Part shown: positions 3,119-39,645 of the stretch, in pieces | Numbering within the stretch: position 1 is the first letter of the stretch | How the letters are laid out: the number at the start of each line of letters is the position of its first letter | DNA from: Jimgerdemannia flammicorona | Lineage: Eukaryota | Assembly: GCA_003990765.1 (NCBI GenBank) | Contig: RBNJ01000043.1 | Coordinates: 1 to 47,792, forward strand | Direction of reading: 5' to 3' | DNA: 47,792 nt | Translations under genes and position numbers: made by a program | Notes under the pieces: model-generated | What the model saw: the letters and a program-made list of their open reading frames with translations, nothing else | Told to the model about the DNA's origin: nothing | Database searches by the model: none

Positions 3119-3121
3119 ACT

Positions 3122-3138
3122 TGGTACCCATTGGCTGG
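3122..3138 (+). promoter_or_regulatory. primer-binding site of A, possibly tRNA-Lys-like TGGCGCCCA before mutation
   Basis: tggtacccattggctgg 3 nt after the LTR; C has tggtgtccattggctgg; tRNA identity is inference. Confidence 0.65.
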
Positions 3139-3238
3139 TAATTCAAGATGAATATCTCACTTTTAAGCTGAAAAATAAATAACTACTATAATAACTACTC
3201 TGACTATAAAATTCACCCCTATAAGAATTCAAGATAAG

Positions 3239-6200
3239 ATAGAAATGTATCTCTCTACATTCTATAGATATACTACTGAAAAGTCAGTCCTGACCTTCAT
3301 TGAAGATTTTGAACAATTTGCTACCATATAAGCTCTTACCATAGATGCATAATTGGTCCTCTTACTTATTAGCCTCAAAGGACCTATCAGAGATAAGTTC
3401 AATATAGCTACTATTGCTGATGCTAGTGCAGCCAAACTTGTCAACATGAAGAACTTTCTCAGAACTACATACTATACTGAAGAGATCAAGCAAGCTCTTA
3501 AGAATTAACCCAATACTATCTACCAGGGACTCAGTAAAGATTCCAACTTATTCTATATCTGAATCTGTCATCAGATTGTCTTGGCTGGCTATAATGATAC
3601 TCTCAAGGAACAAATAGCTGATTTAACCTTCCTCAAAGAAGTTTACTCTGAAATTGTCTTAGCAATCTGATCTATCCTAGCTATTCTAACCCTTGACCAG
3701 AAAGTAGTCTTTATATAGAGATATTGAACTATCATATACTCTACCAAACACTCAATAGAGAAAATAACTAGCATTAAGATGGAGCCACAAAAGCTAACTA
3801 GTATCATACCTACTATAGTTATAAATAGACAACTATCCCCACCTATCCCCAAGGCAGCCAAAGCTAATCTAGTAGAGGAACTCACTAAGCAGATTGCCAA
3901 GATAACTGCATATCTTGATGATATTATTAGAGAAGTCTGAAGTACTAACAGGAGACCAATACAGAGATTTGAAGTTACTACAGAAGAATGTAATATTACA
4001 TACTTCAGATATAGTGAAGAAGGTTACTATATAAAGAGTTACATGACCAAAACAAGGTATAAAGCCCAATCAAGCAATACTATTAGAACCAGAGAACAAA
4101 CCAATACAGTAGTCATCAAGGAGATTGGTGATACTGATGATGAAGAATACTACAAGTAGTTCAAATTCTACCCTATTACTGAAGATACCAGAACCCAGTC
4201 CAAGCTTTATGACAAGAAGAGCAATAGCAAGCCAGTTGGAAGATCAAAGAAGACCCCAGCTATTACTATTCAAAGCAAGACCCAATCTGAGGAGATTGAT
4301 CAAGATATAAAGTTAGATAAAGCTGTCTGTCAAATTATTGAAGACACTACTCCAGTCTCAGGAGAAAGTGAAAGCAAGAAAGAACAGAAGCTGTACAAGA
4401 CTAAGATCCACTAGTATGATATCTATAAAGATCTCAAGAAATAGAAGATTAATGTTACTTTTGGACAACTAGTTGAAGTCTCTGCCTTTAGACAGCAGTT
4501 GAGAGTAGGACTTGCAATCACTGTCAAGAACCAAGAGTACAAGATCATAGAAGCTTACAATATATAAGAAGATGAATAAAAAGACTTAGGTAAAGAATCT
4601 AAAGACCAGTGCAAGATATCAGCCTATACTCTATGTCAGATTGAAGATTGTATCTTTGATACCATTATTGATACTAGTGCTAGAGAATATCTTATGAGCA
4701 AAAAGACAATTGACTATCTATTGAAGAGTCCATCAAAATGGTCTATGTCACAGTAGATAGTATATAAGCTACCCCTCTAGACAAGATCCAAGAAGTCCCT
4801 ATTAAGATAGGAAGAGCTATCATTCTAGTAGATGTGATTGTTATAAGTACCACCAACTATGATATCCTCATTGGCAACTAATGGCTTCACAAGGCCAAGG
4901 CTATCATTGATCTCAATACCTAGAAGATATAGATCAACTATAGAGGAAGAAAGATACAAGTCTCTATCAATGTCTACAAAGGAGTACTATCAGATATGAA
5001 GGAAGGAGATAGGATATAGAAGTCTTCATATACTCAGTATATAAGAATAAGAGTAAGACACCCAAGCTCACAGATGTGCAGTAGTACAACAAGATCATTG
5101 ATGACTATGCCCCTCAAGAAAGATGCCCCCATGGTACCAGGATATATTGCTCTGAATACCTGAATGACTACTGGTTAAATTTAGAAAAATCTGTCAATAA
5201 AAGTATAAGCAAGAAGCTGCTGAAGCAAAAAGGAAAGCCAAAGAAGATAACTAGCCCCCAGAGCTTCAAGCTAATAGTGATGATGAGGAGGAATAAGAAT
5301 CAGACATTACTCTCAAGGTCAAGAAGTTTTACCCTAAAGCTAAGATCTCAGAATACAAGACTGAAAGAGCCATAGGAATGGACCTTGCCAGTATTCAAGA
5401 TGCTATCCTTAAACTACAGACCACTACTCTACTTGGTACTAAAATTAGAGTCAAGTTACTAGAGAATCATACCAGAATTATCAAGACTAGGAGCAGTCTG
5501 GCCAAAAGTGAAATCTCAGTTGAAGGAAGAGTAATTGACCCTGATTACACTGGCAAGATCTTTCTCATAGTTAGGAATCACAACTCCATCATCCTATTCA
5601 AAGTCAAGAAGTATGACAGAATTGGCCAGATGCTGATCCATAAAGTCAAGAAGCCCAAGATCACTGAAGCCATTGAACTCATCAAGACTAAAAGAAGAGA
5701 ATAAGGCTTTAGATCTACTGAAAGAGAAGTCTATGCTGTAATTATGATTATCAAACCTGAGCACAAGAAAGATAAAAACCAGAATAAGCACACATATATC
5801 ATTGGAGAAAACTTTCCCCTAGAAGAACAACTTCTCAAGATCCTATATCAGAATGAAGGAGTACTTGTCACAGACTTCAGGAATATTTATAATCAAGAAC
5901 TCAAGTACTACTATGAAGTTGATACTGGTGATACCAAGCCCATCTACCAGAAAGCCAGACCTATATAGAGAATGGCTGTAAGCAGAACTCAAGAAAATAA
6001 AAGAAGCTAGAATTATCAAGCAAGCTATCAGCCCCTGGGCTTCACTTATTATCCTCACCTCAAAGAAAGGAAGCAAATCTGGAGAGTTTGCCCCAAGACT
6101 CTGCATTGATTATAGAAAGTTACAATTACCAAGAAGGATAGGCAGCTCTTGCCAAATATTCAAGAAATCCTTACCACTCTTGAAAGTAAAGCCAAATATT

Positions 6201-8470
6201 ACACTATCTTGGATCTATTCTCAAGCTTCTATCAGATTGGTCTTACTCAAGATACTAGTGAGAAATCAGCCTTTATCATACCTGATACTATCTATATCTA
6301 CCTGCAAATACTATTTGGAATGTATAATATCCCAGCAAGTTTTTAGTGAATAATAAACAGAGTCTTTAGTAATGAGATTGAAAAATAGCTCTTTATCTAT
6401 ATTGATGATGTGATTATCTTCAGCAATACTGTATACATATGAACATATCAACTATATATAGCTAGCTCTCAAGAAGCTCAAGAAGCATAGCCTCTACATT
6501 AAGCCTAAGAAATATAAGTTTATAGCTCAGGAAATTACCTATCTAGAATACATTATCAACTAGACTAGAATTCATATAGACCCTATGAAGATTGAGGCTA
6601 TTGCAGCCTATCTAAGACCTAGAATAACTATAGAAGTCTATGCCTTCCTTAGACTAGCCTCTTACTATAGAAGATTCATCAAAGAATACTCCAACATTAT
6701 AGTACCTATTTATGAGCTACTGAAGGAGACTAAATTCAAATGAATCAGGAAATGTCAAGAAATCTTCAATGAACTCAAGACTAAATTGATCCAAACACCC
6801 ATCCTCAGAAGACTAGATTGGAACCTAGAGTTTATTCTGCAGATAGATATAAGTATTATAGAACTTGGAGCAGTCCTAGCTCAAAAGAAAGATAGACATG
6901 AATATATCATCTCCTATATAAGTCAAGATATTTACAGAGCAGAACAGAACTATGAGTCATATAAGCTTAAATACTTAGCAGTAGTTTGGACAGTAGATAA
7001 GTTCCACTACTATCTAGCTAGAAAATACTTTACTATTCAAACAGACTATTCCACTCTCACTTAGATATTCTATACTCTAAACTCTAAAGGAATATATGCT
7101 AGATAGATCTATAGGCTACAAGAGTATGACCATACTGTCAAGTACTGCTCAGGAAGAACCAATGCTAATGCTGATGTACTCTCAAGGATACTCCAAAACA
7201 CTCTCTTAAAAACTATTCAACATGAATAAGGAGCTATACTATAGATTAATCAGCTATCTTAAGCAGTAGAAGAGGCCCAACCATCTTGAACTCTGGACTA
7301 TTACTATTATCAACTGGACTTGGAAACAATTTGAACTAGACAATATCATACTTAGAAAAGGAGAAAAGCTTATAATACCTGAATATAAGAAGTATTAAGT
7401 AATAAAGAAAGCATACAAACAAGGATATCTAGGAAGAACTAATATATATAATAAAGCAAGAAGAACTATGTGGTGGTCCAAGATAGAAGAAGACTTGCAC
7501 CAATTTGTTAAAGAGTGTGATAAGTGCTAAAAATAGAAATAAGATCAGTAAGACTAGGTATCTGGATCATCAAGAATTGAGTCTATTGCCTTTTATCACA
7601 TCACAATAGATATCATTGGATCACTACCAGTAATACTATTAGGAAACTACTACATTATAGTTATTGTAGACCTCTTTACCAAATAGATAGAAGCAAGAGT
7701 ATTACAAGAAGCCAATGCTCTCTCTATAGCTGACTTCTTATATCAAAAAATCATCTACTATTACAAGACATTAAGACAAATCACCACAGACTATGGCACA
7801 GAATTCATCAATAGATTCTATGAGATAATGTATCAGAAATATAAGATTCAGCATATCAAGACCACTGTATACCACTCTCAAGGAAATGGACAGATAGAAA
7901 GAACCAACAAGACTCTTAAGAATATTCTGATAAAGATCTCAGATACATATATATGACAATTGGGACAACTACCTCCCAATTACTCTCTCTGTCCTGTGAG
8001 ACATATGGTCATAGAGTATATACTTTATCCTGAGAGAACTGCTTTTTGGAGAAGAATATTCCAATAGAACCTCAGCCATAAAACTAGACCTAACTTAGAG
8101 ATGGATTGACTCAGAAATTCAGAGACTATATCAAATCAGAAAGAAGGCTAAAGATTATATCATCAAGTCATAAATACTGATAAGGAAGAATGCAGAAAAG
8201 AATCACAAGACCCTAGAACTCATCCAAATCAGAAAAAAGGTCCTACTGTATTGAAATATGGTAGAAGCCTTATGGTCACAAAAACTGGAGCCCAAATGAG
8301 AAGAACTCTTTTATATGTAAGATATCAAGAGAACTATCTTCTGGCTTAGAAAACTCTCAGAGATCATACTGCCTACTATAGTATATAAGAACAGACTCAA
8401 GAAGTACCATAAACCTATATAAGAGAAGCAAAATATAATGACTACCTATGAGGTTTTAGTCTGTGAATCA
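3239..8470 (+). pseudogene. gag-pol of element A (gag, Zn knuckle relic, protease, Cys/His module, dUTPase, RT, RNase H, integrase)
   Basis: IIDTSA protease ~4665; LDLFSSFYQI and YIDD RT; LQIDIS/LAVVW RNase H; integrase relic 7400-8410; many stops. Confidence 0.92.
5306..5722 (+). pseudogene. dUTPase domain in the A polyprotein
   Basis: GMDL, RSSLA, GRVIDPDYTG, RIGQ, and mutated RGxxGFGST motifs. Confidence 0.93.
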
Positions 8471-8777
8471 TAACAGTATGTTCTGTAATCAGTAGGCAAT
8501 CTGTCTGGACTATTCTCTAAGAGATACAGTACTAGTAACTACTCATTCATAAGACTTTCAAAGTCAGAGAAGTTTGAACTGTCAACTGATTGATCAAGAT
8601 CAGAATCAGGTCCTTACTCTATATAAAGAGAGTGACTTTTCACCATTACACCAAAATATATAAAGAAGATACTAGTCCATAAATATCACTTTTTGACCCT
8701 CTGTCAGAGGTTATGGGATCAGTAAATTTTTCAGACTAGACTAATGAATAAGGATGTTCAAAAGAAGATTCTTATTC

Positions 8778-8787
8778 AGGAGGAAAA
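8778..8787 (+). promoter_or_regulatory. polypurine tract of A
   Basis: aggaggaaaa immediately before the 3' LTR. Confidence 0.8.
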
Positions 8788-10267
8788 TATAACAGTAATC
8801 TCAGAATGATGATATCAATATAGGAGATAGCCTTTTCTTACAAGCTATCAGATTGGAGTATAAGATAATCATATAGTATAACTTACCCAGACTATAAGAT
8901 GAGTAATAATGACTAACTGTGAGTCATCATAACTACAAGACAGATATCTCAAGAAATATAAAAGAAGGATCAAGAAACTGCAGTAGCAGTAACCCAAATA
9001 AAGCTCACAGAAATAGTTCTAAAGACTTACTATAAACAAATATCTACTACTTACCAAACCTTAAGGTCTAGGAACTACTAAGACTCCTTAGTCTAAGAAA
9101 GGATATTCCAAGACATTATAAGAGCCATGAGGACCTATAAAAGAAGGACTCCTAATCTCAATCTAGGTATTGATAACTCTTAATTATATCCTCTATTATT
9201 GTAAAATAGAAATAAGAATCACTATCACTACTGAATATCTCTAGATATAGCAAGAATATGAAATAGAAAACCTCCTCTACCAGGAATTCCCTCAGACCAG
9301 TCTCCAAGAAATACAAGATGCTACTTCTATAGATATATATAAAATAAGGATAGCTAAGAAAATTCATTAGGTTTTCAGACATATATTATGATCAATCCTC
9401 AACTTGGAGTATATTAGAATCTCAGACTTCAAAGAACTATCAGCCTACCATATCAATATACTAGAGGCCATGGTGACCACAGAAGCCCAGTCCACCATCA
9501 CTCTCAATAGTGATAAAGTAGAAGAGTTCTAGTATTCCATTCTCTAGAATAATCTAGATCAATTCCTGTAAAGATTAATCTCAGTATTCTAAGGCCTCAG
9601 CATTCAGGTTAGACCTCCCCAAGACCCCATATTTGTCTCTTATTTTGTGAAAGAGAACTTCATAGATTGGAGAGCTCCAGATCTTCTTGCTCTCTCTACC
9701 ACTAAATATAATGATATTACTAACAATGACATCATTCTGTGCAACATATGTGAAATATGCAAAATGGATGAAATATTTGCAGATCTCATTTTCTTCAGTA
9801 ATAATGAAGATGATGCCCCCATGGTTCTGAACATTCTGCTCTAAGTTCTTGATAATACTGAAATCTTCTGGTATTCTTTTTCTATATAACTGAAATCTAC
9901 TAGTATCCTAAACTTATGTAACCATTTGTACAAATACTTGAATTTATACTTACAACTATAGTTTTTTATATTCTAGTATTTTATTTGATTATTGGAATTT
10001 ATATTTAGCTTTATAACTTAGCAATCATTAAATTATATTTTGTATAAATATCTCTCTTATTTTCTTTAAAATAAAGTCAGTCAAGTTCACTTATACTCAA
10101 TTCCACATAAGCAATCTAAGAAATAATAAAATAGTTTAAAGATAAGAAGTTTGAGGACTATAAGACCTTGAGAAAGTACTCAATAAGAACTTGCTTATGA
10201 TTAGTCTAAGAGATATATCTTGAAAAGAATCTGAATATTTGAAAGACTCAGCAACCACTATATAATA
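8788..10267 (+). repeat. 3' LTR of element A (~1.48 kb)
   Basis: Starts tataacag (TGTAACAG in C); AATAAA at 10070. Confidence 0.92.
9040..9844 (+). pseudogene. LTR-encoded accessory ORF, family A copy 2
   Basis: ORF track 9647-9844 (ENFIDWRAPDL...LNILL) is its C-terminus; start codon mutated to ATA. Confidence 0.7.
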
Positions 10268-11022: not shown

Positions 11023-13070
11023 TGTAAGAGGGTTGCTTTTTAGGGTAATCATTACATAGTTCTGGAAAGGTTTTCTGGATATTCTGGAAGACCGTTTTCT
11101 TATGGTCAAGATCAATTTGTATGGAGTATGTCCTCTATACTTATTGATTTCAAGTTCAGGTTGACATCTCAATCAAAGTCCTTTTTTGGACTAGTTCTGG
11201 ATGTTCAGGATTTCCATATTTCAGGAAGTTCAAGAAACTAAGACCAGCTTAGTTGAATTGGCATATTGCTGCAGACAATACCCAATTAGGAAATTTCGTG
11301 ACAGGGTTAGGAGTAGGACCTAACAGGGAGCAGTTTTACTTAAGAGTAGTTTGTGGGTTATTAAATAGGTTTATTCACTATTCATGATATTGCTATACTA
11401 GGAGTAGTTGGGTGAGGGGATATTGTGGGGAAGTATTCAGGAATGTTCTTATGTATTCGAGTCTGAGATTCTGAGGTCTGAGAGAGGGGGTATTTATACT
11501 AGTAAGGGGCTATCTGGACTATGCTGAATATGAATATAGCACTAAGTGCTTTGCTGAGTCGAAATGCAGTCATGTAGTACAAGTGTGATCTGACATATCA
11601 AGAGATCATCTGACTGCTGAGTCAGTTCACAGTCACGTCATATAAGGCTAATCTAACTATACTATGACTGCTTAGGCTATTTATGATTTAGGCACTATCT
11701 GGGTAGTCCTCGATGACATCACCATCAATTGCATCATCTCTGATAAAGTAGTCATCCAGAAAGAGTGGTTCACAGATTACTTTTCCTTGTTTGCTGAGGT
11801 AATACATTAGAACTTCATCTCTGTCCCACAAGATGGCATTGTCTGTCTTGTGTGCTGGATAAGGTATTGGTGGGCAAAGGAGGGGTGTATCATCTTCACT
11901 TTTATTGGTTTCACTATCTGCATACCTTCTATAGGTTATGGCACTATGAGTCATGGGATTGTAGTAGGCTGGTGGCTGTGATTCATATCACTCATACTCA
12001 GGTAGTAGAGTGGTTAGTTCAATCTCGAGGGTTGTCTGGAGATACAGATTGTGTTCTCCAGTCTCTTTATTATAGTTAAAGTAATTGGGAGTGAATGCAG
12101 ATTAGTATTCGTGCCAGTGGTCATTGTCCCAATAAGTCTCGTAGGCTGTTATGAATTGTTGTAAGTTCATTAGCAAGGTTGGTGATGTGATCAGGGTTGG
12201 CAGAGATCCTTGGCTAGAGGTCATGTTGGTGTCAGAGGGATTATTGTCTTCTGCTTCATCTTCATCGAAGTGAATTATATTATAGATGTCCTTCATGGTG
12301 TATCCAACTTGGGGCATTTGCAGAATATGATCATTGGGGTGTGAGAAGGTTCTGTCTGTGGTTTCGATGTACTTGAGGTACTTGTGATTGAGTTCTTGTA
12401 TCATATCGTCGATTTGGCCATAGGACAGGGTAGTAACCATTTCAGCTATGGTAACTCAGAGCTGGAGAATAATGGTGCTATACTCATAGAAGAGTTCTCG
12501 GTGTTTGTGGGTGATGAGCTTCTGGTGTTGAGACATCTGGGTGATGTCTGTATCATAGTGGTATTTGATCATGTCTTCTAGGAGGCGGCCGATCTGGTAG
12601 TAGCTTGAGATTTGTCCAATTCGGTGGGCCTTGCTAAGTATGTTCAGAGCATTCTATTGAGCTTTCACGAAGTAGAGGGGTGCTAGGCTATGGATATTCA
12701 TGAGGGGCAGAGGGGGTGTGGCTCAGTTGACAATGGCATTCCAAATGTCAGCGCGGATATGGGTATAGATCTCAGTGGTCATGTTTGTGTGTTTGGAAGT
12801 TGTAGTTGTTGTTTGTTTTGGTTCTCTGATTCAATATGTCTCGGTGCTTGGTATATATGCATTTGATCCTGATTGGTAAGATTCTATTTGTGTAAATCTT
12901 GTATTCTGTGACTTCATATTGACTCAGCTTTGTATGCTGTGACTTCAGTTTGACTCAGCTTCGTGATCAAGCAGGTGATTTCCAGATTTGTTCAGAGATC
13001 GTGTGTGATTTCAGTGGCTTGTTCAGAGGGTGACGTGTAATTTCAGTGGCTTGGAGGTTGTATACTTACA
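11023..13070 (-). repeat. 3' LTR of B (~2.05 kb)
   Basis: Direct repeat of 19375-21420; minus-strand TATA at 11491-11498 and AATAAA at 11370-11375. Confidence 0.95.
11688..12782 (-). pseudogene. LTR(U3)-encoded accessory ORF of B (~364 codons)
   Basis: ATG at 12782 (MTTEIYTHIRADIW...); ORF-track pieces 12102-12440 and 11688-11954 are in the same frame; about 5 point stops. Confidence 0.78.
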
Positions 13071-13086
13071 ACTCTCCCCTTCTTAG
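13071..13086 (-). promoter_or_regulatory. polypurine tract of B
   Basis: ctaagaaggggagagt on the minus strand before the 3' LTR. Confidence 0.85.
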
Positions 13087-13299
13087 CTTTCGACATCCTC
13101 GTCAGGGCCTTCTAATTTTATTCACTGGTACAGAGAGAATAGGCTTGCTTTCAGTTTTGCCATTTTTCCAGAGGGTCAGTATTCTTGTCTTGTTTTGCTA
13201 AGTTCTTGGTTTGGTTTGCAATAATTATAATGTTCAGGAGGATAATATATGGTATGTATAGATAGGTGCAGAGTATTTGGTTCTAATTGTTCAAGGAAT

Positions 13300-13450
13300 C
13301 ATATTTCTAAACTAGGTCAGTAGCATTCTGGAGATTGGTCTTGGGTTTCCAGGTTGCATCATGGATCAGATAACCTTTCCATTTGACAAGATACTCAGGG
13401 TGGCTCTTGTTGCTACATTTGTTGAGGATTTGTTCAACTTCATACTCTTC
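13300..13450 (-). pseudogene. chromodomain at the integrase C-terminus
   Basis: EYEVEQIL...EYLVKWKGY...ATW.P..NL. Confidence 0.92.
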
Positions 13451-16400
13451 TTAGTAATTAATAATAACAGATACAGGTGGTTTGGTGGTCTGGTTTGGAA
13501 ATAGCTCATCATCATTCTCATTATATCACTTGAGATGTTGAACATTAAAGACTAGGTGAATCTTAATGGTGTCTGGTAGTGCCAATTTGTAGGAGGTTGG
13601 AGAGACTTGTGCAATGACTTCAAATGGTCCAATGAACTTGTTGTTTAGCTTTGTAGATAGTCTGTGCTTGAGGTTGTCAACTCAGTATCCTCTGATATCC
13701 AGTAGAACTTTTTTGTCAATATCAAAGGTTTCTTCTTAGCAGTATTGGTTAATATTATGACTATTGTTCTTGAGCTCATGATAAATTCTCAATGGCAATC
13801 TGGCTTAGATTGCACATTCAGAGTAAGAATTCTTCAACAGCTTCAACTGTAGAGGGTTCTTCAGTAGTTCGGACAAGTGTCAAAGGGGTGTTTGGGTTTT
13901 ATCCAGTGTTGGTGAAGAATGAGGTCATTCCAAGAGAGGCTTGCTTGCTATTGTTATAGGCAAACTCAACTGTGGTGAGGTGTTCATGCCAGTCATCTTG
14001 TTTGTAGGAAACATAGTTCCTTAGCATTTGTTCCAGAGTTCAGTTCATTCTTTCAGTTTGGCCATCAGTTTCTGGGTGAAAGGCTGTGGACAGTACAAGT
14101 TTTGTTCCAAGGTGTATATGGAGGGCTTTCCAAAAATGGCTGGTGAATTTCAGGTCTCAGTCACTAACAATGATCTTGGGAAGACCATGATAGCAGAAGA
14201 TGTTGTTAAACAAGAGTGTAGCTATTTCTGATACTATTGTAGTAGTGGTAGTAGGCACAAAGTGGGCTTGTTTGCTGAGATAGTCTACAAAGACAACAAT
14301 TGCATCTTTCCCATTCTTGGTTCAGGGTAGTTGTACAATGAAGTCTATAGAGATTTGTTCCCAATTCGCAAATAGTACTGGGATAGAGTGAAGTAAGCTG
14401 GGTTTTGCTAGTGTTGAGGACTTGTTTCATTGGCAGATATCACAGGAAGTGATGTAGGTTTTGAGCTGATCTACCATGCAGGGCCAATAGAGTTTCAGGA
14501 GATAACTTTGTAATATTTATCAAATCCTAAATGTCCAGCTATAGGGATATCATGATATTCGAATAAGATAGTCCTTCAGAGGTCTCAGTTGTTTGGGACA
14601 TACAGTCTGTCCTTGTAGTAGATAGCATTGTCCTTCAGTTGGTATTGATGATACTGTGTATGCTTGTCAGCATCGTCACTATTCAGGATTTCTCACAGTG
14701 CTTGAGCTTCCTTATCATCGGCACATGCTGTGATAATTTGTTCCATGATAGAGTTTGTAACCAAGGTGAGAGTTTGGATAACCTCTTCAATTGGTGGTCT
14801 GGAGATTGCATCAGCAATAATATTTTCCTTACCAGGGCAGTACTGGATTTCATAGTCAAAGTTGGTGAGGACTTTCATCCATCTGGCTTGCTTTCAAGAA
14901 AGGGTAGCCTGTGTCTTAATATTGACTAATGATTTGTGGTCAGTCAATACGGTGAAGTGTGCTCCTTCTAGGTAGGGTCACCATTTGATCAGAGTATCTA
15001 TGATGGCTAGCATTTCTTTCTCATGGGTTGCATAGTTAATTTCAGTATCATTGAACTTGCAGGAGTGATAGGCCACAGGGTGTCCTTCTTGTATGAGTAC
15101 TGCTCCAAGGGCTAGGTCAGAGGCATCAGTGGTAACTTCATATAGCAGAGCAGGGTTTGCCACTTGAAGTACTGGAGTGGTTATCAGGGCATCCTTTAGT
15201 GCTTGAAAGGTGGTATCTTGCTCAGGTCCCCAAGTTACAAGATTGTTGAAGTCTTTCTCTTGTTTTATGGTCCAGGGTTGTTCTTGTTTCTTACTATACT
15301 TGGTCATTTGGGTGAGGGTAGTAGCAATTTTAGCAAAGTTGGCAATAAATTGCCTGTAATAAGTTTACTAATCCCAGGAATGACTGAAGGTCTTTCAGCT
15401 TCTTGGGTCTGAGCCAATCCTTGATTGCAGAGATTTTGCTGGGGTCTACTTTGATTCTATTTGGAGTGACAATGTGTCCAAGAAATTGAATTTCTTTCAG
15501 GAGAAATTTGCACTTGCTGAGTTTTGCAAAGAGTCGGTCTTCTCAGAGTTTCAGTAGTACTAGTTCAAGGTGTTCAAGATATTCCTCCAGAGTTTTGCTG
15601 AAGACTAGGATGTCATCAATGTAGACAATAACAAATTTGTCCAGGTATGGATGCAGAATGGTATTCATCAGTGTCTGGAAGGTTGCTGGAGCATTAGTTA
15701 AGCCAAAGGGCATAACCAGGAACTCAAAGTGTCCATAGCAAGTTTGGAAGGCTGTCTTGTAGATGTCTTCTTCTTTCATAGCAATTTGCCAGTAACCATT
15801 TTACAGGTCAAAGGAGCTCATGAATTGTGGGTTGGTGAGCCTATCGAATATTTCATCGATCCTTGGTAGTGGGCAACAGTTCTTGATGGTCTGTTCATTG
15901 AGATCATGTAGTCAATGCACATTCACAGGTCTCCTCCTTTTTTGACAACAAATAGAACTAGTGCACCATAAGATGATACACTGGGTCTGATGAATCCTTG
16001 TTCTAGGAGTTCATCAATTTCTTTCTTGAGTGCATCAATTTCTCTTGAAGACATGTGGTAGATTGACTTGAAGGCTGGTTTGGCATCTGGGATAGTCTTG
16101 ATGGCATGGTCTACTACTCATTTAGGAGATAGGCCTTTCGGGAGCTTCTTTGAAAATATGTCTTGAAATTTCTGGAGTAGTGGTCTGACACAGCTATCAA
16201 CTTTGGAAAAATCTTCTTCAGGGTTCTCAGGTTCTCCTTTGGATGGGCAGATGGAGATGGCAAAGAGGGGGCATTTCTTAGCCAATTTCTTGAGTTGTAG
16301 TTTATTGATGTAGGTGATCTTTGGTCCAAGGTCACTAGAATTAAGTGAGTCCTTTTCACCTTACAGTTTGAAGTTGTGGCATCTTTTCTTGATGGTCAGA

Positions 16401-16939
16401 GAATGGGTTACCCAATCGATCATGAGGTTCTCTTGTTTTAACCATAGAGTCCCAAGGATGATTTCATTGTCAGGAAGTGGTATGATTTGGAGAGTAACAT
16501 GTACTCAGTAGTCACCAATTCAGAGGGGTAGATTGCAGACTTTTTTGCTAATAATATGTGAGGTTCTATCAGCTGTAGCAACTGCTTGAGTTTGCTGTAC
16601 TGGAGAGGTAAAGACCTTGAGTCTGTTGGCTGTCTCTTCATTGATGAAGTTGCCTGAGGCACTACTGTCTATCATAACCTTGACAGGTGCTCAGTTGACA
16701 AAAGCCTTAAGTGTAAGCAGTTTGTCTGATCCAATGGTAGTAATTTCAGTTGTAGGGGCTTTCCTTCTATTGGTTCTTCTTTGAGCCAGTTCATTGATAC
16801 AAGAGAAGCAATCATTAATTATTTGGGAAGAGTACATTCTAATGCTATGGGGACATTGGCCACTTAGTACATATCCATCTTCAATTTTCTTGTAGAATTG
16901 TTCCTCTTTGTTCATGGTAGGTTGGGCTGGGGCTTTGTT

Positions 16940-17351
16940 TGATGAGCCAAATCCTTTAGATCCTCGGATGGTGGGCAGTAGTTCAAGGACTTTCTTGACT
17001 GTCAGGGTTGACTCGATTTTTTCGAATAGGATCTGAGCAATGCAGAAACCAATAGGGATCTTGAAGGGTGTCCAACTGTAGTTTCAGATAAGGATAATAA
17101 TTTCACCTGTATAATCCTCATCAATGACTCCTCCATCTACTGAGAGTCCTTTCAATGCTAGGCTGCTGCAACAGCATATTCTTCCAACATGTCCTTCAGG
17201 GATATGGATGCTGATTCCTGTGTAGACTTATTTGACTTCTCGGTTGGAAACTATAGCTTCTTCGGCTACATACAGGTCATATCTAGCTGCTTTCTGACTT
17301 TCTTTGGTTGGGGCCTTAGCAGTTTTTCTTAACTTGACAAAGTCTAGTATT
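16940..17351 (-). pseudogene. dUTPase domain between the gag Zn knuckle and the protease in B
   Basis: AARYDL, SSLALKGLSVDGGVIDEDYTGE, IAQ, RGSKGFGSS. Confidence 0.93.
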
Positions 17352-19361
17352 CTGGTGGTCAGGTTGTTGAGGTGGTGCAGAGTGGTAACAGTTGCTCATA
17401 TTGCTGTTCAGGGTTTCCAGTTAGGACAGGCACTAGCCATGTGTCCTGTCTTTCGGCAATAGAAGCATGCTCCGCTTCTTTGAAGTTCATTCCTTTCGCC
17501 TTTGGTAAGTTCCTTGAAGGTGCTTGGCTGGGTGGATTCATGATTTCTAGGTGTCCAAGAGATGGATGTAGAGGGAGCTCAGGATGCTTCGTGCTTGGGT
17601 TCTTCTTTCTTGGTCCAAGTCTTTTTCTTATTGTTGAATTGCCTTCAGGGCAGAATTGGTCCGGCTGTTAGGATTTGCTTGACTATAGTCTTGATTCTTA
17701 CTAGGCACCATTGTTGGTAATCACAACCAACTGAGTGGCCTTATTCTCAGATTTTTCTAATAAGCCATTCAGGCAGGGTATTGAATAAATAGTCTGCTCT
17801 TGTACTATTTCATGCTTCATCATTGGCAATATATCCTAGGCCAATAGTGTTCAGGAGTAACTCAAGTTTTGTACAGAAGGTTTCGAATTCTTCTTTGCCA
17901 TATATATCAAATTTGAGGTTGCAGAGTTTTACTCGAGATTTGGTAATCATGGTTTCGCTGCAGTATTGAGCAATCATGAGTTATTTGAGTCCAGGGGTTG
18001 CAGGATGGGCTCCATATCCTGGGACATTGTTTGCTGCATTCTGAGCAACTACTGCAGGTCGGGTATCCCATGTGAGGGGTTTTTCAGAAAGGGTTTGCCA
18101 CTATTCTTTGGCAGGTCCTCAGAAGGATGTAACAACTTGGTGGACATAGGCTGTAGTGGTAGCAAAGAGTTGTTCCAGTGTGTGGTCTTGATTGTTTGTC
18201 AGAATGCAGTCAGCAACTCACTCATTGGTCCATTGATTGGCTTCAAAGTTGGTGTCAACTATACTAATGAAGCTTTGAACTTCTTGTGCAGTACCATTGA
18301 AGATAGGTAGGCTCAGATTTTTAGTAGATTGGGTCTGTTCAGCTAAGGCAGTAATGGTTGCTGCCATTATAGCTATTTGGGCTATGAGATCAAGAATCTG
18401 TTGGTTTGCCATGTTGTTTGCTGGAGGTAGTTGGACTGCTGGTAGTAGTATTACTGGTACTACTTGAGGTACTGGTGCAGAGTGTGATGGGGTTCTTTGG
18501 GTCTGTGTAAGTTGCTGGAGTAGTAGTTGTGGATCTGGAGTAAGGGCTTGATAGATAGCTGTTTGTTGTTGTATAGGTGTATTCTGTCCTGATAGGAGTA
18601 CGTCTCCTTCGGTGGTGTATCTGAGATTGAATTCAGTGAGATACTCCTCCTCCTCTTCAGTTTGGTCCCTGTGTAATTGGGTTTGCTCAGTGTCAAAGTA
18701 GATGGAATCAGTTATATATCTGATTTTGGAGGGACTTAATTCAAAGTCAAGTTTAGGTTTGGTATTGGTTTCAGATTCAGATAGGGCTATAGTAGGGCTT
18801 GCTTCAGGTTTAGGGTCAGGTAGTTGATGAAGGGTTTCTCTTGCTTCTTCTTTAAGAATATGGTGGGCCTTGTTATTCTGGAATTGGTAGTATAATGCAG
18901 TCTTGGTCCTGGTATGGTGAAAGTCGGTAGAGTTGAGCCACTTGGCTATAGAGGCTTGGGCTTCATGAGGAACTAAGGCTAGGAAGACTGCTGCTGGTTG
19001 TCCTAGGTCACTTGGATTTGTGGAGCTGACAAAACTCTTGTTGAGAAGAGTAAAGAAGGCTTCAATAAGACCTTCTTCATCTTGACTTGCTGGGTGTAGT
19101 GCAAGGAGTTCAGTGAATAGGATTTTGCCTGTTTGCTAGTTTAACTAAAGTACTTCTTTCTTTGAATGAAGTTTATCCCACTTGTTGCAGGTGTAGAGGT
19201 TAAATTGTCCTTATATGTCAGGTTCAATTCTCTCCAGATTGTCAGATGGTTCAGGATAAATTCCAGTTCAGAGGTTGGGCTTTATACCAACTTGTAGGAA
19301 TTCTCAAAAGGGTTTGTAGTGGGGTAAGGAAGCATCTTGAAGCGGAATTGGATTGTAAACT

Positions 19362-19372
19362 GCTGCTACCAA
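19362..19372 (-). promoter_or_regulatory. primer-binding site of B, initiator-Met-like
   Basis: TGGTAGCAGC 3 nt after the 5' LTR, complementary to a ...GCUACCA tRNA end. Confidence 0.75.
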
Positions 19373-19374
19373 GT

Positions 19375-21420
19375 TGTAAGAGGGTTGCTTTTTAGGGTAA
19401 CTGTTACATAGTTCTGGAAAGATTTTCTGGATATTCTGGAAGACCGTTTTCTTATGGTCAAGATTAATTTCATATGGAGTATGTCCTCTATACTTATTGA
19501 TTTCAAGTTCAGGTTGATGTCTCAACCAAAGTCCTTTTTTGGACTAGTTCTGGATGTTCAGGATTTCCATATTTCAGGAAGTTCAAGAAACTAAGACCAG
19601 CTTAGTTGAATTGGTGTATCACTGCAGACAATACCCAATTAGGAAATTTCGTGACAGGGTTAGGAGTGGGACCTAATAGGGAGCAGTTTTACTTAAGAGT
19701 GGTTTGTGGGTTATTAAATAGGTTTATTTACTATTCATGATATTGCTATATTAGAAGTAGTTGGGTGAGGGGATATTGTGGGAAAGTATTCAGGAATGTT
19801 CTTGTGTGTTCGAGTCTGAGATTCTGAGGTCTGGGGGAGGGGGTATTTATACTAGTGAGGGGCTATCTGGACTATGCTGAATATGGATGTAGCACTAAGT
19901 ACTTTGCTGAGTCGGAATACAGTTATATAGTACAAGTGTGATCTGACATATCAAGAGATCGTCTGACTGCTGAGTCAGTTCACAGTCACATCATACAAGG
20001 CTAATCTAACTATACTATGACTGCTTAGGCTATTTATAGTTTAGGCACTGTCTGGGTAGTTCTCGATGACATTACCATCAATTGCATCATCTCTGATAAA
20101 GTAGTCATCTAGGAAGAGTAGTTCGTGGATTACTTCTCTTTGTTCACTAAGGTAATACATTGAAACTTCATCTCTATCTCACAAGATGGCATCATCTGTC
20201 TCATGTGCTGGATAAGGTGTTGGTGGGTAAAGGAGGGGTGTATCATCTTCGTTTTTATTGGTTTCACTATCTGCATACCTTCTATGTTATGGCACTATGA
20301 GTTGGGGGGTTGTAGTAGGCTGGTGGCTATGGTTCATGTCACTCATACTCGGGTGGTGGAGTGGTTGATTCAATCTCAAGGGTTGTCTGAAGGTATAGGT
20401 TGTATTCTCTGGTCTTTTCATTATAGTTGAAGTAATCGGAGGTGAATGTAGATTATTATTCATGCCAGTAGTCATTGTCTCAATAAGTCTCATAGGCTGT
20501 TATGAATTGTTGTAAGTTCATTGGCAAGGTTGGCAGTGTGATCAGGGTTGGCAGAGATCCTTGGCTAGAGGTCATGTCGGTATTAGAGGGATCATTGTCT
20601 TCTGCTTTGTCTTCATCGAAGTGGATTATATCGTAAATGTCCTTCATGGCATATCCAACTTGGAACATTTGCAGAATATGATCATTGGGGTGTGGGAAGG
20701 TTCTGTCTGTAGTTTTGACATACTCGAGGTACTTGTGGTTGAGTTCTTATATCATATCATTGATTTGGCCATAGGACAGGGTAGTAACTATTTTGGCTGT
20801 GGTAACTCAGAGCTGGAGAATAATGGTGCTATACTTGTAGAAGAGTTCTCAATGTTTGTGGGTGATGAGCTTCTGGTATTGAGACATCTGAGTGATGTCT
20901 GTATCATGGTAGTGTTCAATTATATCTTCCAGGAGGCGGCCGATCTAGTAGTAGCTTGAGATTTGTCCAATTCAGTGAGCCTTACTAAGTATGTTCAGAG
21001 CATTCCATTGGGCTTCTATGAAGTAGAGGGGTGCTAGGCTATGGATATTCATGAGGAGCAGAAGGGGTATGGCTCGGTTGACAATGGTATTCCAAATATC
21101 AGCGTGGATATAGGTATAGATCTCAGTGGTCATGTTTGTATGTTTGGAAGTTGTAGTTGTTATTTGTTTTGGTTCTTTGATTCGATACATCTCGGTGCTC
21201 GGTATATATACATTTGATCCTGATTGGTAGATTCTGTTTGTGTAAATCTTGTATTCTGTGACTTCATATTGACTCAGCTTTGTGCACTGTGACTTCAGTT
21301 TGACTCAGCTTCATGATCAAGCAGGTGATTTCCAGATTTGTTCAGAGGTTGCGTGTGATTTCAGTGGCTTGTTCAGAGGGTGACATGTAATTTCGGTGGC
21401 TTGGAGGTTGTGCGCTTACA
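19375..21420 (-). repeat. 5' LTR of B
   Basis: Colinear with 11023-13070 (offset about 8352). Confidence 0.95.
20041..21133 (-). pseudogene. LTR-encoded accessory ORF of B, second copy
   Basis: Same reading as 11688-12782; a 2-nt indel near 20285 shifts the C-terminus. Confidence 0.72.
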
Positions 21421-21799
21421 TCTCAGGCTCCAATCATTTAATGGGTGAGAATTCGATTGATATAACGCTTGGAACGTTGAGTTGAAGATTGAGAAGGGGT
21501 GTGTTGGGGTGTTGGGTAATTGAGTAATGGAGGATGGATAGAGAAATATAGATGGAATATGTGAGTAACTAAAGAGATTTCGCATGATTTCGCGTATTCA
21601 ACTCCACCAAGGTGGTGGTGATTTCGTGTTCTTTCCAACCTAAGACGTGGTGATTTCGCATTCTTCCTAGGACATGTAATTACATAGGACGTGTATTTAG
21701 GTCGGATAATTAATGTAAATAATACATATCACACCAATATTTACTCAAAAGTACTCTATTATTAATGACGTTTGTCTATAAGAGGCAATAGAAACCAAT

Positions 21800-24125: not shown

Positions 24126-24356
24126 ATTAAGAAGTCTCCTATACTTCTGAACTTAAGGAGGAATTCAATAAGCTATTCAGTAGCTACTTCTATGAGAAAT
24201 ATATATAAGAATCTATTGAGACTATAAGTAAATATTTTCTGAATCTCTTCATTAATAATTGCTACTATATATAAAGCTAGAGCCTTTCTGAACTATAAGA
24301 GATATGTACTATACTTATAAAAAAAAATCTCACTTCTATTACCAAATTCTCTATAT

Positions 24357-25836
24357 TGTCATGTAGTAGTCGCTGAGTCCTTCAAATATGCCAGATTCTC
24401 TTCAAGGTATATCTCTTAGACTAACTCAAGTTGTTATAAGTAAGTTCTTATTGGAGTGCCTTTCCAAGGTCTTATAGTTCTCAAACTTCTTATCTTTAAC
24501 TGTCTTGTTATCTCTTAGATTGCTTGTAAGGAAGTGTGTGTATTGCACTGAGAAGACTGACTTTATTTCAGAGGAAATAAGAGAGGTATTTATACAAAAT
24601 ATAATTCAATAGTTGCTAAGATATAAAGCTAAATATAAATTCCAATAACTAAAACTACTAAGTTTCAGGGCTAGCATTATTTAGTGTCACATCAAAATAC
24701 TGGTGCTGGAACAATTTCGCATCACCTCAGAATGCTGGTACTGGCATTATCTAGTGTTACATGAGAATACTGGTGCTGGCATTATCTAGTGTAATAAAGA
24801 ACTTAGAGCAGAAAGTTCAGGATTATGGGGACTTCATCATCATCATTACTGAAGGAGATGAGATCTGCAAATTTGTCATTTTTGTGTGCTTTGATATTAT
24901 GTGGGATGATGTCATCACATTTGGCTGTGGCGGGGAAATCAGGGACAAGGTCTGGAGCTCTCCAGTCTATGAGGTTCTCTTCTACAAAATAAGGAACAAA
25001 TGTGGGGTCTTGGGGAGATCTAACCCAGATGCTTGGGCCTTGGAATACTGAGATTAATCCTTGCAGGAATTGATCTAGGTTGTCCTGAAGGATAGAGTGC
25101 CAGAAGTCTTCTACTTCTTCATTGTTGAGGGTGATAGTGGACTGGGCTTCTGTAGCCACCCTGACTTCTAGTGCATTGATATGGTGGGATGATAGGTCTC
25201 TGAAATCTGAGACTCTAATATACTCCAAGTTGGGGATTGACCATAGTGCATGTCTGAAGATCTGATGGATCTTCCTAGCTGTCCTTGTTTCACGTATATC
25301 TATGGGAGTGGTATCTTGTAGCTCTTGGGTGCTGGCCTGTGGGAACTCCTGACAGAGGAGGTTTTCTATTTCATACTCCTGTCACATTTGGAGGCATTTG
25401 GTAGCAATAGTGATCCTTGTTTCCATTTCGCGGCAGTAGAGGATAAAGTGATAAGGGTCTGCAGTATCTAGGTTGACACTAGGAGTCCTTCTTGAGCAGA
25501 TCCTCATGGCTCTTCTGATATCTTGGAACATCCTTTCCTTGACTGAGATACCTTGGTGATTCCTTGACCTTGAGATTTGGTAGACAGCAGGCATTTTGTT
25601 TGTGGTAAGTCTTTGAGCTATTTTGGGATTGGTGGTTCTTATTGGTTGCTGCTACTGTGGTTCCTTAATCCTTCTTTTATATTCTTCAGGATGCTTGTAC
25701 TATGGTCACAATGACTCACAGTTGGTCATCATTGCTCATCTCATATGCCATATGATCTTCTTGTGCTCCGATCTGGTAGCTTGTAAGGAAAGGCTGTCTC
25801 CTGTGCTAATGTCATCATTCTGGGGTCACTGTTACA
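24357..25836 (-). repeat. 3' LTR of C
   Basis: Direct repeat of 39646-41141. Confidence 0.95.
24803..25594 (-). pseudogene. LTR-encoded accessory ORF, C 3' LTR
   Basis: ORF-track pieces 25382-25594 and 24803-25228 are in one frame. Confidence 0.8.
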
Positions 25837-26338
25837 TCTGAGGAGGAAGAAGGCCCAGTGGGAGCCAAGGGAGCGAACCCAGAGCTAGTGTAAAGTGAAC
25901 AGAAGATATGTATATGGAAGAGCATATATAAGGGGGATGAACAAAGAATGTAACCGAAAATGCATCAGCCATTTATTGCCATATAAAAATGCAGTCCTTA
26001 TATACAAAATATGATGTCCCAAAAGGGAGAATGTGCCACAACTTGGGGCGAACCGAATTAGGAACCACATGACTGCCGGAGATAGGTGGAGATAAAGGGG
26101 GAGCCAATCCCAGTTGCAGGATAAAAATCACAAACAAATACAAACAAAACAAATCCAAATCGAGATTAAAAAACATCTGCAGACCCCAGAGGGGTGAGCG
26201 TGAGTGAGGGGTGAGGCTGAAACGGAGCGAGCTACAGTGAGCCTGAGCAAAGCAAGGGGCCGAAGACAGTGGAGGGGAGCAGAGTAAGGCCGAGACCCCA
26301 GAGCGAGCATGAGACCCTGGAGGGGGCAAGGATGTTTT

Positions 26339-28360
26339 TTAATCCTCTCCAGCAGAGCCGGAGGCACCAGAAGGTGACAAAAACGCAAAACAAGAGTGAT
26401 GGATTGAAGAAGAAACAGAAAGAAGATGCGAATGAGCAATCAGAGGGTGTCAGGAAAGAGATAAAAGTCCATGGCATGAAAGAGAAGAGCGCAGGATGGT
26501 ATCAGGGCGTTGAGCGACCCAGCGAGCATGATCAAATAGTACGACAAGAATTGGGAGTGAGAAAGAAGAGGGGGTATGGAGAGGGTAAGGGGGGAGAGAG
26601 GGAAGGGAGGGGGGATAAAGAGGAGAGAGGAGGGAAGAGTGAACAATAGACCATTCAACAGAAGCAAGCAGATTGCAAACAATAGAAATAGGGTAGGCAC
26701 AATGATGGACCACGAAGTTGCCAAGAACCCGAACAGCAGACACCCAATCAGAGTGATGGGAGCAGCATAATGTAAGATGACAAGCCTCACCCCGAACATA
26801 TTCAAGAAGAGTACAATGAGGATGATTGGACAAGAAGTCAGGGAACTGTTGGGAATATGGAAAATGAGAATAAACAACAGTTCAGAAAGGGGAAAGAGAA
26901 ATGGAAAGGTCCAAAAAGGGAATACTAGTCATACCACACACCCAGGTAATAGAATGGTGGAGAGGGTAGGCACCCAGAAACACACTAGGGATATCAATAC
27001 TAACAATAGTGAAGACAATGAAGTCATCAATGTAATGGCAAAAGAAGATATCCCCAGCCTGGAACACAATGGAAAGAGGTGAAGTAATATCATATAACAC
27101 ATGCAATTCATGGGTCAGGCCAATAAGGTTGGCAAGGGTGGGGGCACAATTCGTTTCCATGGTAATACCAGAAGTCTGGTGGAAGGAGCCAAGGGCTGAC
27201 TCAAAATAATTAGAGCCGCAGATGAGGAGCATAAGCTTAACAATAGAAGCCAATGAAACCAGGAAATCCAAAGGAAAGACAATGGAACTCAAGAAGTGAA
27301 GACAATTATCAATCTCATCAAAACGAATAGCAGTATAAAAGGAGGAAAAGTCACCGGAGGCCAAATGGGAAAAATGATGAACAGGCACAATGGTGGAGCA
27401 GAGAAGGGTGAGCTCCTGAGTATCATGAAGAATAGTATACTCAGGCCCAAGATGGTGTTGTAAGAGAGCTATCTAGGAGAGAAAGAAGTAGGATAACTAC
27501 TTCGAAATCTCAGTGATAGGAGAACTGTAAGCAGCTGTAATGGGATGCTAAGCCAAAATAGGCTTGTGAACTTTAGGAAGAGCATAGAAAACTGAAAGAG
27601 AAATATCTGGAGAGGATAAAGAGTCCTGGAAGAAGTTAAAAATGGGGTTTGCGAACAGAGAGTCCAAAAGCAACCTGGCATGAGCTAGAGAAACCCAAAG
27701 AAGAGTGAGAATCTCATCCAATCCAAGAGCACTAGGCTCGTAAGCCACAGCTTGAAGGAGGGCAGAAAGGCCATTAAGGTAGAGCAACTTAGGAATAAGT
27801 GCAAAACCCTGATTCTTATCAGTGACTGTGAGCAAATGCATAGGCAATTGCTTGACCGATTTAAGCGTAGTATGCATGGCACGGTCTGAAACCAAGCAAG
27901 AGCGAGCACATCCAGGAACGGACAGCGAGCAAGCCATATCGAGGAATACGTAGTGTGAAGAGACATTGGGAGGGGGGGCCCAATTGCTAGGAACAAAATA
28001 GTGAGAGGACATCTCACCATGATCTTGAAAGAAAATGGCAAGGTCAAGAGCACAATGAAAACATGTGAGACAAGCTGGATCAGTAAAGGAGAATTGTGAG
28101 AGAGTCACAGGAAAAACAAAGCAAGGACCCAAGGATAAGGCAAAGACTTGAAGGGGAGAAAGGGGGCAGTCAGCTGAAGAAAAAGGAGGAGATAGAAGAG
28201 TCCCAAGAGAAGAATAAACCCAAAAGTTTGGGACAAGCAACTGGGAAAGACAAAGGGGGGACAACATGAGGAACCACTCAGAGTGCACCAGAAGTGATGA
28301 TGGAATCCGAAAAGGGACGGAGATACTGGGAGAGAACCATGCCAGGGGGAAGTTTAAGAG
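26339..28360 (-). pseudogene. PLE reverse transcriptase, left arm
   Basis: FYALPKVHKP, DFSSFYTAI, CAPTLANL, YIDD, PFLDL, SNHPH. Confidence 0.9.
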
Positions 28361-29558
28361 CGGGAGGCCTTCCCCTTCCCTCTGACTTTTTTTGAAGGTG
28401 GCGAGCCTGATGAATGGGAGTACACCCCATCAGAGTACCAGACCTTACAGCCACAGGCTTTCATGTAGCCCTTACATTCAGGGGCACAGGTGGAGGAGGT
28501 GGAGGAGAAGCCAGCAGAGGAGGCCAAAGGCGAGTAAGCAGCCGAAGGGGCAGCAGTGTGAGGAACACCACCATGAGAATAGACAGACTTGGCCAGATGC
28601 CAGTAGGCATGGTGGAGGTGACCAGAGCAGATGGCACAAGGCCAGGCCCTGACAGGGTGAGAACCAAGTTGGCGGCCATGCTTGGGGGCAGGGGGAATGG
28701 AGGAGGAAGCCTTGGCGGGGGAGGGGGACCGGGAAGAGGCTGACGAAGCCTGATTGGGCTTAGCGGAGGTCTTGGCAGGGGTCTTGGAGGGGGTCTTGGT
28801 GGCAGCAGCAGTGAAGGATTGAACCTCAGTATGAGCAGCAGTACGAGCTTCAGCACGAATGGCCTCAGAGACCAAAACCTCAAGAGAGACAGGCAGAGGA
28901 GCAGTGGCAGCAGCGCAAGCAGTGGCGGCAGTACAAGACATCTCCTGCTCATGAAGGCAAGCAACAAAAGAGGTGCCAGTGAGGAGAAAATGATGCACAG
29001 CATTGATGTCGGTGGCGACAGAAGGAATGTCTTGGATAGTGAAGCCACAGAAGAGGGCAGCATCCGAAAGGTGAGAGGAGGTGAAGGCCACAAAGATGGC
29101 ACAGGCACGTTGGAAGGAGATGGAAGTGGTGGTGGCAGAAGCAGTGGTGGCATCAGCGGCGGAAAGCTTGGTGGCAGCAGTGGTAGCACAAACCTCTTCA
29201 GAGAGGGCTTGGCAGCAGGCTTCAGGGAGAACAGAGTAGTGGACAGCAGGCAGAGTGATAATGTTGACGTCATGGTGGAGACAAGCCTCCTTGGCGGAGA
29301 GGACAAGAACTGACTGGAACTGGGAGAGGAGCAGATGACCAGAGGGACAAAGGTCCAAGGGGAGGGAAAGGATGGCAGATGAGATGTAAGTCTTGAACGA
29401 GACAGTAGCAGGGGTGAAAGCAGGGAGAGGGGGAGGAGGAAGTTCCTCATCCATGAGCTCATCAATGAGGACAGAGGCCCCGAGGGCAGGCGGTATAGCA
29501 GAGAAGAAAGAAGGCCCAGTAGGAGCCAAGAGCTAGTGTCAAAGTGAACAGAAGACAT
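28354..29558 (-). pseudogene. PLE ORF1, Ala/Ser/Pro-rich with CxxCxxxxH motif, left arm
   Basis: 391-aa open frame; basic C-terminus; small deletion near 29530. Confidence 0.75.
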
Positions 29559-30239
29559 ATGGAAGAGTGTGTATAAGGGGAATGAATAAAGAATATAACC
29601 GAAAATGTATCAGCTGTTTATTGCCATGTAAAAACACAGTCCTTATATATAAAATACAACATCCCAAAAGGGAGGATGTGCCACAACTTGGGGCGAACCG
29701 AATTAGAAACCATATGACTGCCAGAGATAGATAGAGATAAAGGGGGAGCCAATCCCAGTTGCAGGATAAAAATCACAAATAAACACAAACAAAACAAATC
29801 TAAATCGAGATTAAAAAACATCCTTGCCCCCTCCAGGGTCTCGCGCTCACTCTGGGATCTCGGCCTTACTCCGCTCCCCTCCGCTGCCTTCGGCCCCTTG
29901 CTTTACTTGGGCTCACTGTGGCTCACTCTGTTTCGGCCTCACCCCTTGCTCATGCTCACTCCTCTGGGGTCTGCAGATGTTTTTTAATCTCGATTTAGAT
30001 TTGTTTTGTTTGTGTTTGTTTGTGATTTTTATCCTACAACTGGGATTGGCTCCCTCTTTATCTCCACCTATCTCCGGTGGTCATGTGGTTCCTAATTCGG
30101 TTCGCCCCGAGTTGTGGCACATCCTCCCTTTTGGGATGTCATATTTTATATATAAGGACCACGTTTTTACATGGCAATAAATGGCTGATACATTTTCGGT
30201 TATGTTCTTTATTCATCCCCCTTATATATACTCTTCCAC

Positions 30240-31458: not shown

Positions 31459-31459
31459 A

Positions 31460-39525: not shown

Positions 39526-39625
39526 CTTATCTTGAATTCTTGTAGGGGTGACTCTTGTAGTCAGGGTAGTTGTTGTGGGGGTTGTTCATTTTTCAGCTTG
39601 AAAGTGAGGGATTCATCTTGAATCA

Positions 39626-39642
39626 CCAGCCAATGGACACCA
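39626..39642 (-). promoter_or_regulatory. primer-binding site of C
   Basis: tggtgtccattggctgg 3 nt after the 5' LTR. Confidence 0.7.
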
Positions 39643-39645
39643 AGT

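Follow-up and report, generated by a model that had tools for sequence, protein, structure and literature searches.

Retroelement dUTPases are generally credited with preventing the entry of uracil into nascent cDNA, and in the betaretroviral nucleocapsid-dUTPase fusion it is the nucleocapsid part that anchors the enzyme; to our knowledge, a few retroviruses are the only cases in which it is understood how a dUTPase is kept where reverse transcription takes place. According to a passage of one report, the betaretroviral dUTPase resembles that of fungal chromoviruses (PMC2774666). The dUTPase-bearing fungal Ty3/gypsy elements named in the text of another study are PosPlaTy3-3, -4, and -5 of Postia placenta, together with those discovered earlier in Phanerochaete chrysosporium and Tuber melanosporum, and in the gypsy families of P. 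placenta the dUTPase occupies three different positions (PMC2864245). dUTPase and retroviral protease domains are described as enriched in Entomophthora muscae in a passage of a further report (PMC11105155). In the locus described here, dUTPase is accompanied by a short Cys- and His-containing module, which is very probably a real, conserved domain that is tied to the enzyme.

The window, that is, the whole stretch of DNA that was analysed, comprises 47,792 nucleotides of Jimgerdemannia flammicorona (contig RBNJ01000043.1, positions 1 to 47,792) and contains three decayed LTR retrotransposons, A, B, and C (Table 1), which are assigned to Ty3/gypsy by their paired LTRs and Pfam domain orders. 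A and C belong to a single family, and their internal regions match each other in inverted orientation at ~80-86% identity. Element B belongs to another family and carries a chromodomain (Pfam Chromo, E 2.7e-13) at the C-terminus of the integrase, as is characteristic of chromoviruses; no Pfam match to a chromodomain was found in C or A, which is weak evidence because both elements are decayed. The reading frames of all three elements are interrupted throughout by stops and frameshifts, and several of these breaks are single-base changes to stop codons. Beside its 3' LTR, element C holds a foreign insertion (25837-33900) with long inverted arms (26601-28393 vs 31419-33211, 91%; 28387-29530 vs 30281-31424, 87%), a G+C content of 0.46-0.52 that is above that of the surroundings, and only weak RVT_1 matches (E 5.9e-4 and 5.7e-3); this insertion resembles a pair of copies of another retroelement joined head to head.

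Table 1. Retroelements, module copies, and neighbouring protein domains in the window.
Feature	Coordinates	Strand	Remarks
Element A, whole	1705..10263	+	LTRs 1705-3114 and 8935-10263, 82-86% identical
Protease remnant of element A	4777..4935	+	Pfam
Module relic of element A	5049..5177	+	In-frame stop; C-x2-C half gone
dUTPase of element A	5339..5719	+	PF00692, E 5.4e-19, 68.7 bits (cut-off 22)
Element B, whole (chromodomain-bearing Ty3/gypsy)	11023..21424	-	LTRs 11023-13074 and 19375-21424, 91% identical
Reverse transcriptase core of element B	15468..15902	-	RVT_1
Aspartic protease of element B	16382..16729	-	RVP_2 and related Pfam families
Module of element B, between dUTPase and protease	16763..16924	-	Core C-P-H-x12-C-x2-C within 16787-16906
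dUTPase of element B	16940..17320	-	PF00692, E 2.4e-30, 105.4 bits (cut-off 22); stops inside
Gag CCHC zinc knuckle of element B	17420..17470	-	Pfam
Element C, whole	24356..41141	-	LTRs 24356-25836 and 39645-41141, 91% identical; foreign insertion ~25837-33900
Reverse transcriptase core of element C	36194..36649	-	Pfam
dUTPase of element C	37034..37420	-	PF00692, E 4e-28, 98.2 bits (cut-off 22)
Module of element C, between protease and dUTPase	37546..37704	-	In-frame TAA at 37636-37638
Aspartic protease of element C	37822..38145	-	Pfam
Gag CCHC zinc knuckle of element C	38719..38766	-	Pfam

Domain orders were read from Pfam scans of the frames of A, B, and C, with stops read as X. Element B has the order zf-CCHC, dUTPase, module, protease, reverse transcriptase (RT), RNase H, integrase, SH3, and chromodomain; element C has zf-CCHC, protease, module, dUTPase, RT, RNase H, and integrase; and element A has protease, module, dUTPase, RT, RNase H, and integrase. 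The Pfam coordinates thus confirm the permutation of B relative to A and C that had been proposed in the first-pass annotation of this DNA. In all three elements the neighbour of the module passes the Pfam cut-off for trimeric dUTPase (PF00692).

The modules of B and C are encoded on the minus strand. Translation of that strand at 16787-16906 and 37561-37680 returns exactly the two peptides compared in the first-pass annotation, which had placed them correctly, and the plus strand at these positions gives unrelated peptides with stops. BLASTP aligned the two modules without gaps at 50.8 bits, with 20/40 identities and 30/40 positives, in agreement with the earlier gapless hand count of 20/39. 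At the nucleotide level, 73 of the 120 positions are identical (30, 29, and 14 of 40 at codon positions 1, 2, and 3, respectively), and half of the identical residues (10/20) are encoded by different codons. The match between B and C thus reflects conservation at the protein level, and is neither a chance resemblance nor a DNA-level one. A six-frame scan of the window with an HMM of the module found exactly three copies, one each in A, B, and C; those of B and C match by construction because both are rows of the HMM, and copy A, which lies outside the rows, scores E 2.6e-19. The relic that had been suspected in A at ~5075-5175 is therefore a genuine, broken copy (Table 1). The stop in copy C is a TAA codon where copy A has CAA (Gln), and Gln is also the residue at this position in an intact relative (P0153).

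The module had been flagged as unrecognised, and no annotated domain matching it was found in Pfam or in PDB sequence searches. Pfam gave nothing on the module at E<=10 in four window pieces and three intact relatives, and nothing at E<=0.01 in the relatives P0156, P0161, and P0178; PDB sequence searches returned only dUTPase chains and chance rows, and the ESM Atlas returned no usable match. With its spacing of C-x-H-x12-C-x2-C and no Pfam match at E<=10, the module falls outside zf-CCHC (PF00098), and it likewise falls outside Integrase_H2C2/HHCC (PF17921), the matches to which sit in the integrase region. None of the papers listed in full-text searches, outside of which lie the element-structure supplement of PMC2864245 and Novikova and Blinov (2008), describes such a module beside a retroelement dUTPase. 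The module is apparently an undescribed small domain.

Relatives were sought in public proteins by two routes. A word-seeded search recovered an intact B-family fragment that is 80% identical over the module (P0002), an intact fragment of the A/C family, ordered protease end-module-dUTPase-RT (P0153), a member of a third family with dUTPase followed by the module (P0154), and a B-family fragment in which the module match is partial (P0155). A search seeded with dUTPase domains gave 122 proteins of 255-2000 residues, at least 120 of them listed. The set scanned with the module HMM comprised 123 dUTPase-bearing proteins (the 121 proteins P0153-P0273, plus P0002 and P0121), six of which gave clear matches: P0002, P0153, P0154, P0155 (partial), P0156, and P0161. 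Because P0002, P0153, and P0154 are rows of the HMM, only P0155, P0156, and P0161 count as independent matches. The intact relatives of the module are P0002, P0153, P0154, P0156, and P0161, and the third family consists of P0154, P0156, and P0161, with the order gag-CCHC-dUTPase-module-protease in P0156 and dUTPase-module-protease in P0161. P0161, an otherwise intact third-family copy, has Tyr at the position of the His ligand, and may be a decayed copy.

A seventh protein, P0178, gave a weak match only (domain E 0.012 among the 123 proteins). Its order is CCHC, module-like segment (674-702), dUTPase (742-869), and protease (883-991), and in the module-like segment Cys replaces His and two residues are missing. 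If this match is real, there are three domain orders, in which dUTPase is the module's only constant neighbour; both this third order and the His-to-Cys argument given below depend on P0178, with its weak match. P0156 (~residue 159) and P0178 (~residue 496) also have in common a gag motif, C-P-H-E-Q-W-C, far upstream of the CCHC knuckle. Pattern scans beyond the public proteins yielded one true relative among 474 matches in metagenomes, a decayed B-family copy (L001), and no true relatives of the module among 74 matches in viral contigs.

The gap between module and dUTPase is from 1 to ~40 residues in all three window copies, in L001, and in all seven (7/7) module-bearing proteins. The dUTPase does not need the module, since only 7/123 dUTPase-bearing long proteins carry it, and since P0121, with the order protease-dUTPase-RT, has neither a module nor any Cys between the domains; among the 54 dUTPase-bearing proteins in which 60 or more residues flank dUTPase on each side, the module is present in only three. 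As a control, we took the 150 nearest protease-RT relatives of B (the best 150 from a profile over all 537 columns of P0002). None of these 150 proteins matches the module HMM, and one has a dUTPase; furthermore, a C-x-H..C-x2-C motif upstream of the protease is absent from all 35 B relatives with at least 100 residues there. These results show that the module is no general feature of gypsy proteases; it marks a minority of dUTPase-bearing elements. The proposed tie to dUTPase is supported, in that every copy found lies close to a dUTPase and the 150 nearest protease-RT relatives of B have no module; the converse fails, with 116/123 dUTPase-bearing proteins being without one. In B, P0156, P0161, and A/C the protease, too, is a direct neighbour of the module, and adjacency alone cannot separate dUTPase from protease as the partner.

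Certain other dUTPase-bearing proteins (P0222, P0223, P0252, and P0258) have different Cys/His clusters just upstream of dUTPase, in the same place as the module. P0223 has two C-x-H..C-x2-C motifs, and P0252 and P0258 (Geosiphon pyriformis by NCBI name) have C-x-H-x9-C-x2-C. In the dUTPase tree the four proteins form a group (support 97* and 82), and their clusters score at most 3.9 bits against the module HMM, which is no match. The dUTPases related to those of the window also include many in copia-type polyproteins (Pfam PF07727, PF13976) and in badnavirus ORF3 proteins, which indicates that dUTPase capture is widespread across retroelement classes.

Between B and C, the module is 43% identical over 53-54 residues (50% over 40), compared with 37% over 181 residues for RT, 37% over 154 residues for dUTPase (42% over 92 between intact relatives), 28% for RNase H, and 29% for integrase; the proteases gave no match at E<=1e-3. 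Judged from these alignments, the module is about as conserved as the best-conserved enzymes of the elements. That the module passed recently between B and C was considered and rejected: at 43-50%, module identity is near that of RT (37%) and dUTPase (37-42%), and being only slightly above them it gives no hint of a recent swap. A tree of 113 dUTPase rows cannot order the events because 46/110 of its inner branches are open. An AU test did not reject one clade of the dUTPases of B (win_B), C (win_C), P0153, P0156, and P0157 (p 0.625), a group chosen once the tree was known, with P0157 included by family (its sequence ends before the module) and P0178 left out; the tree constrained to one clade had an lnL 8.97 above that of the quick free tree. 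A single origin of a dUTPase-module cassette, followed by rearrangement, is thus allowed. The interpretation given in the first-pass annotation is thus partly supported: the module is conserved, lacks an annotated match, is shared by two gypsy families in permuted order, and is tied to dUTPase, and the suggestion that a small Zn-binding domain was acquired or exchanged together with dUTPase is compatible with the data.

In a seven-row alignment of four families, the invariant columns are Y19, C25, P26, Y32, C40, and C43, and the His column is occupied by His in five rows and by Tyr and Cys in P0161 and the weak relative P0178, respectively. The His-to-Cys swap is counted in favour of zinc because a metal ligand tolerates such a replacement. 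AlphaFold2 gave an unusable model from a five-row alignment (pLDDT 50.9) and a model with mean pLDDT 79.2 and pTM 0.56 from the seven-row alignment. The latter comprises a helix at 3-16, a bridge (23-24/30-31) flanking C25-P-H27-G, a helix at 34-39, and a helix at 41-54 that begins at C40/C43. Four of the five intact modules examined carry a net basic charge, all have five aromatic residues, and the residue immediately after the first Cys of the C-x2-C is aromatic. Searches with the model found nothing usable by PDB Foldseek (best E 8.0), VIA-align against the PDB (best Z 4.0), or BFVD (best E 2.7), although a null result in a fold search says little either way for a domain of 57 residues. With no structural neighbour at hand, the fold class is drawn from secondary structure alone. 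Taken together, the invariant Cys columns with the His column between them, the swap in P0178, and the AlphaFold2 model point to a putative zinc site, at which one zinc is likely bound by C, H, C, and C.

We lean towards the reading that the retroelement dUTPase shares a cassette with a new, small CHCC zinc-binding domain, which may serve as a tether to nucleic acid or to a complex. The module is very probably a domain of ~45-55 residues in the Gag-Pol of a small group of Ty3/gypsy elements, composed of an aromatic- and basic-rich helix, a short hairpin with a C-P-H-G turn, 12 residues, and a C-(W/F)-x-C that opens a basic helix. The Cys and His of the hairpin, with the Cys pair at the start of the helix, would most likely hold one zinc, in a CHCC arrangement like that of a treble clef or zinc knuckle. 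The module and the captured dUTPase would travel as a two-part accessory cassette, the placement of which would differ by lineage: dUTPase-module-protease, protease-module-dUTPase, and probably module-dUTPase-protease. Inside the particle, the likeliest role of the module would be that of an anchor for dUTPase, either on nucleic acid or on the reverse-transcription complex; we put this role forward tentatively, by parallel with the betaretroviral nucleocapsid-dUTPase.

The module could alternatively be an accessory of the dUTPase itself, docked on the trimer as its stabiliser or regulator in place of binding nucleic acid. Such a dock would account for the constant proximity to dUTPase (within ~40 residues, on either side), and for the B-type order, in which the module comes directly after the last dUTPase motif; but the 116/123 dUTPase-bearing proteins that manage without a module argue against it, and a domain that operates at either end, through linkers that vary in length, is easier to reconcile with a tether than with a fixed dock; we consider this explanation unlikely. 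It is more improbable still that the module belongs to the protease, with a function in dimerisation, regulation, or processing, and that dUTPase merely landed adjacent to it. The module does touch the protease on its upstream side in B, P0156, and P0161, and on its downstream side in A/C and P0153. However, the 35 B relatives with sufficient upstream sequence lack the motif and none of the 150 matches the module HMM; in P0178, albeit a weak match, the module-like segment is separated from the protease by dUTPase; and it would be unusual for such a domain to function from either side of a protease.

There is rather little probability that the module is a fragment derived from a cellular protein, captured with, or apart from, a host dUTPase gene and without a role in the element. 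dUTPase is itself a captured cellular or viral gene, and, according to the text of one study, fungal elements apparently obtained it in independent events and from different sources (PMC2864245), both of which favour a passenger; however, the module has no match outside a retroelement context (in what was a weak search for a donor), and purifying selection has kept it in at least three element families. That it is a chance resemblance or a low-complexity linker, and no domain, is scarcely credible: although it is short (~40 residues) and has neither a database family nor a structural neighbour, such an origin is opposed by the 50.8-bit gapless alignment, by the pattern at third codon positions, by independent recovery in A, L001, P0155, P0156, and P0161, and by the model at pLDDT 79. 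A more far-reaching reading would make the module the founder of a new CHCC zinc-finger class, with a dUTPase cassette that was shuffled by recombination between unrelated Ty3/gypsy lineages and loads dUTPase onto replicating nucleic acid, and with the clusters of P0222, P0223, and P0252/P0258 as divergent members. We regard this as unlikely; if it were true, the shuffled cassette would explain the three different insertion orders, and in one large group of fungal retroelements dUTPase would, as a rule, have a zinc finger next to it.

A dedicated zinc module that travels with dUTPase, as in the tethered cassette that we favour, would, if true, be a testable answer for fungal gypsy elements to the question of how the enzyme is held in place. 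It would add a domain family to the annotation of retrotransposons, in which Pfam leaves these 50 residues blank, and the permuted orders would be a natural experiment on the movement of accessory cassettes within polyproteins. The scope is narrow, in that few families were found and there is no evidence of any host effect.

The nucleocapsid CCHC knuckle (PF00098) resembles the module in having three Cys and one His as likely ligands, basic flanks, and an aromatic residue after the first Cys of the C-x2-C. It differs in ligand order and spacing (C-x2-C-x4-H-x4-C, vs C-x-H-x12-C-x2-C in the module); moreover, the module has an extra conserved N-terminal helix and in A/C is located downstream of the protease, outside Gag, and Pfam is silent on it yet detects the gag knuckles of B and C. 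The betaretroviral nucleocapsid-dUTPase fusion is similar in its Gag-Pol position beside dUTPase, to which the order in B (knuckle-dUTPase-...-protease) is parallel.

The integrase HHCC domain (PF17921) is, as the module would be, a small helical zinc module of retroelements with a C-x2-C at the start of a helix. Its pattern is H-x(3-7)-H-x(23-32)-C-x2-C, and the true integrase domains of A, B, and C are located elsewhere in the polyprotein. In treble-clef zinc sites, the usual layout is a knuckle at the turn of a hairpin plus a C-x2-C at the start of a helix; CHCC fingers of the treble-clef and zinc-ribbon kinds (e.g., the TFIIB-type ribbon) share with the module the C-x2-C and the predicted hairpin-turn knuckle, and the model has a bridge around C-P-H-G and a helix from C40. 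They differ in that the module, as modelled, is helical in part and has no PDB sequence or fold match, with no chain above Z 4.0 and no Foldseek hit at E<=0.001.

Also close are the dUTPase-bearing gypsy elements of fungi. In the text of the study that describes them, CCHC and HHCC are the sole zinc motifs mentioned, and no further module next to dUTPase appears (PMC2864245). As in A, B, and C, the placement of dUTPase varies among the elements covered by that text, and includes positions N-terminal to Pol and between protease and RT (PMC2864245).
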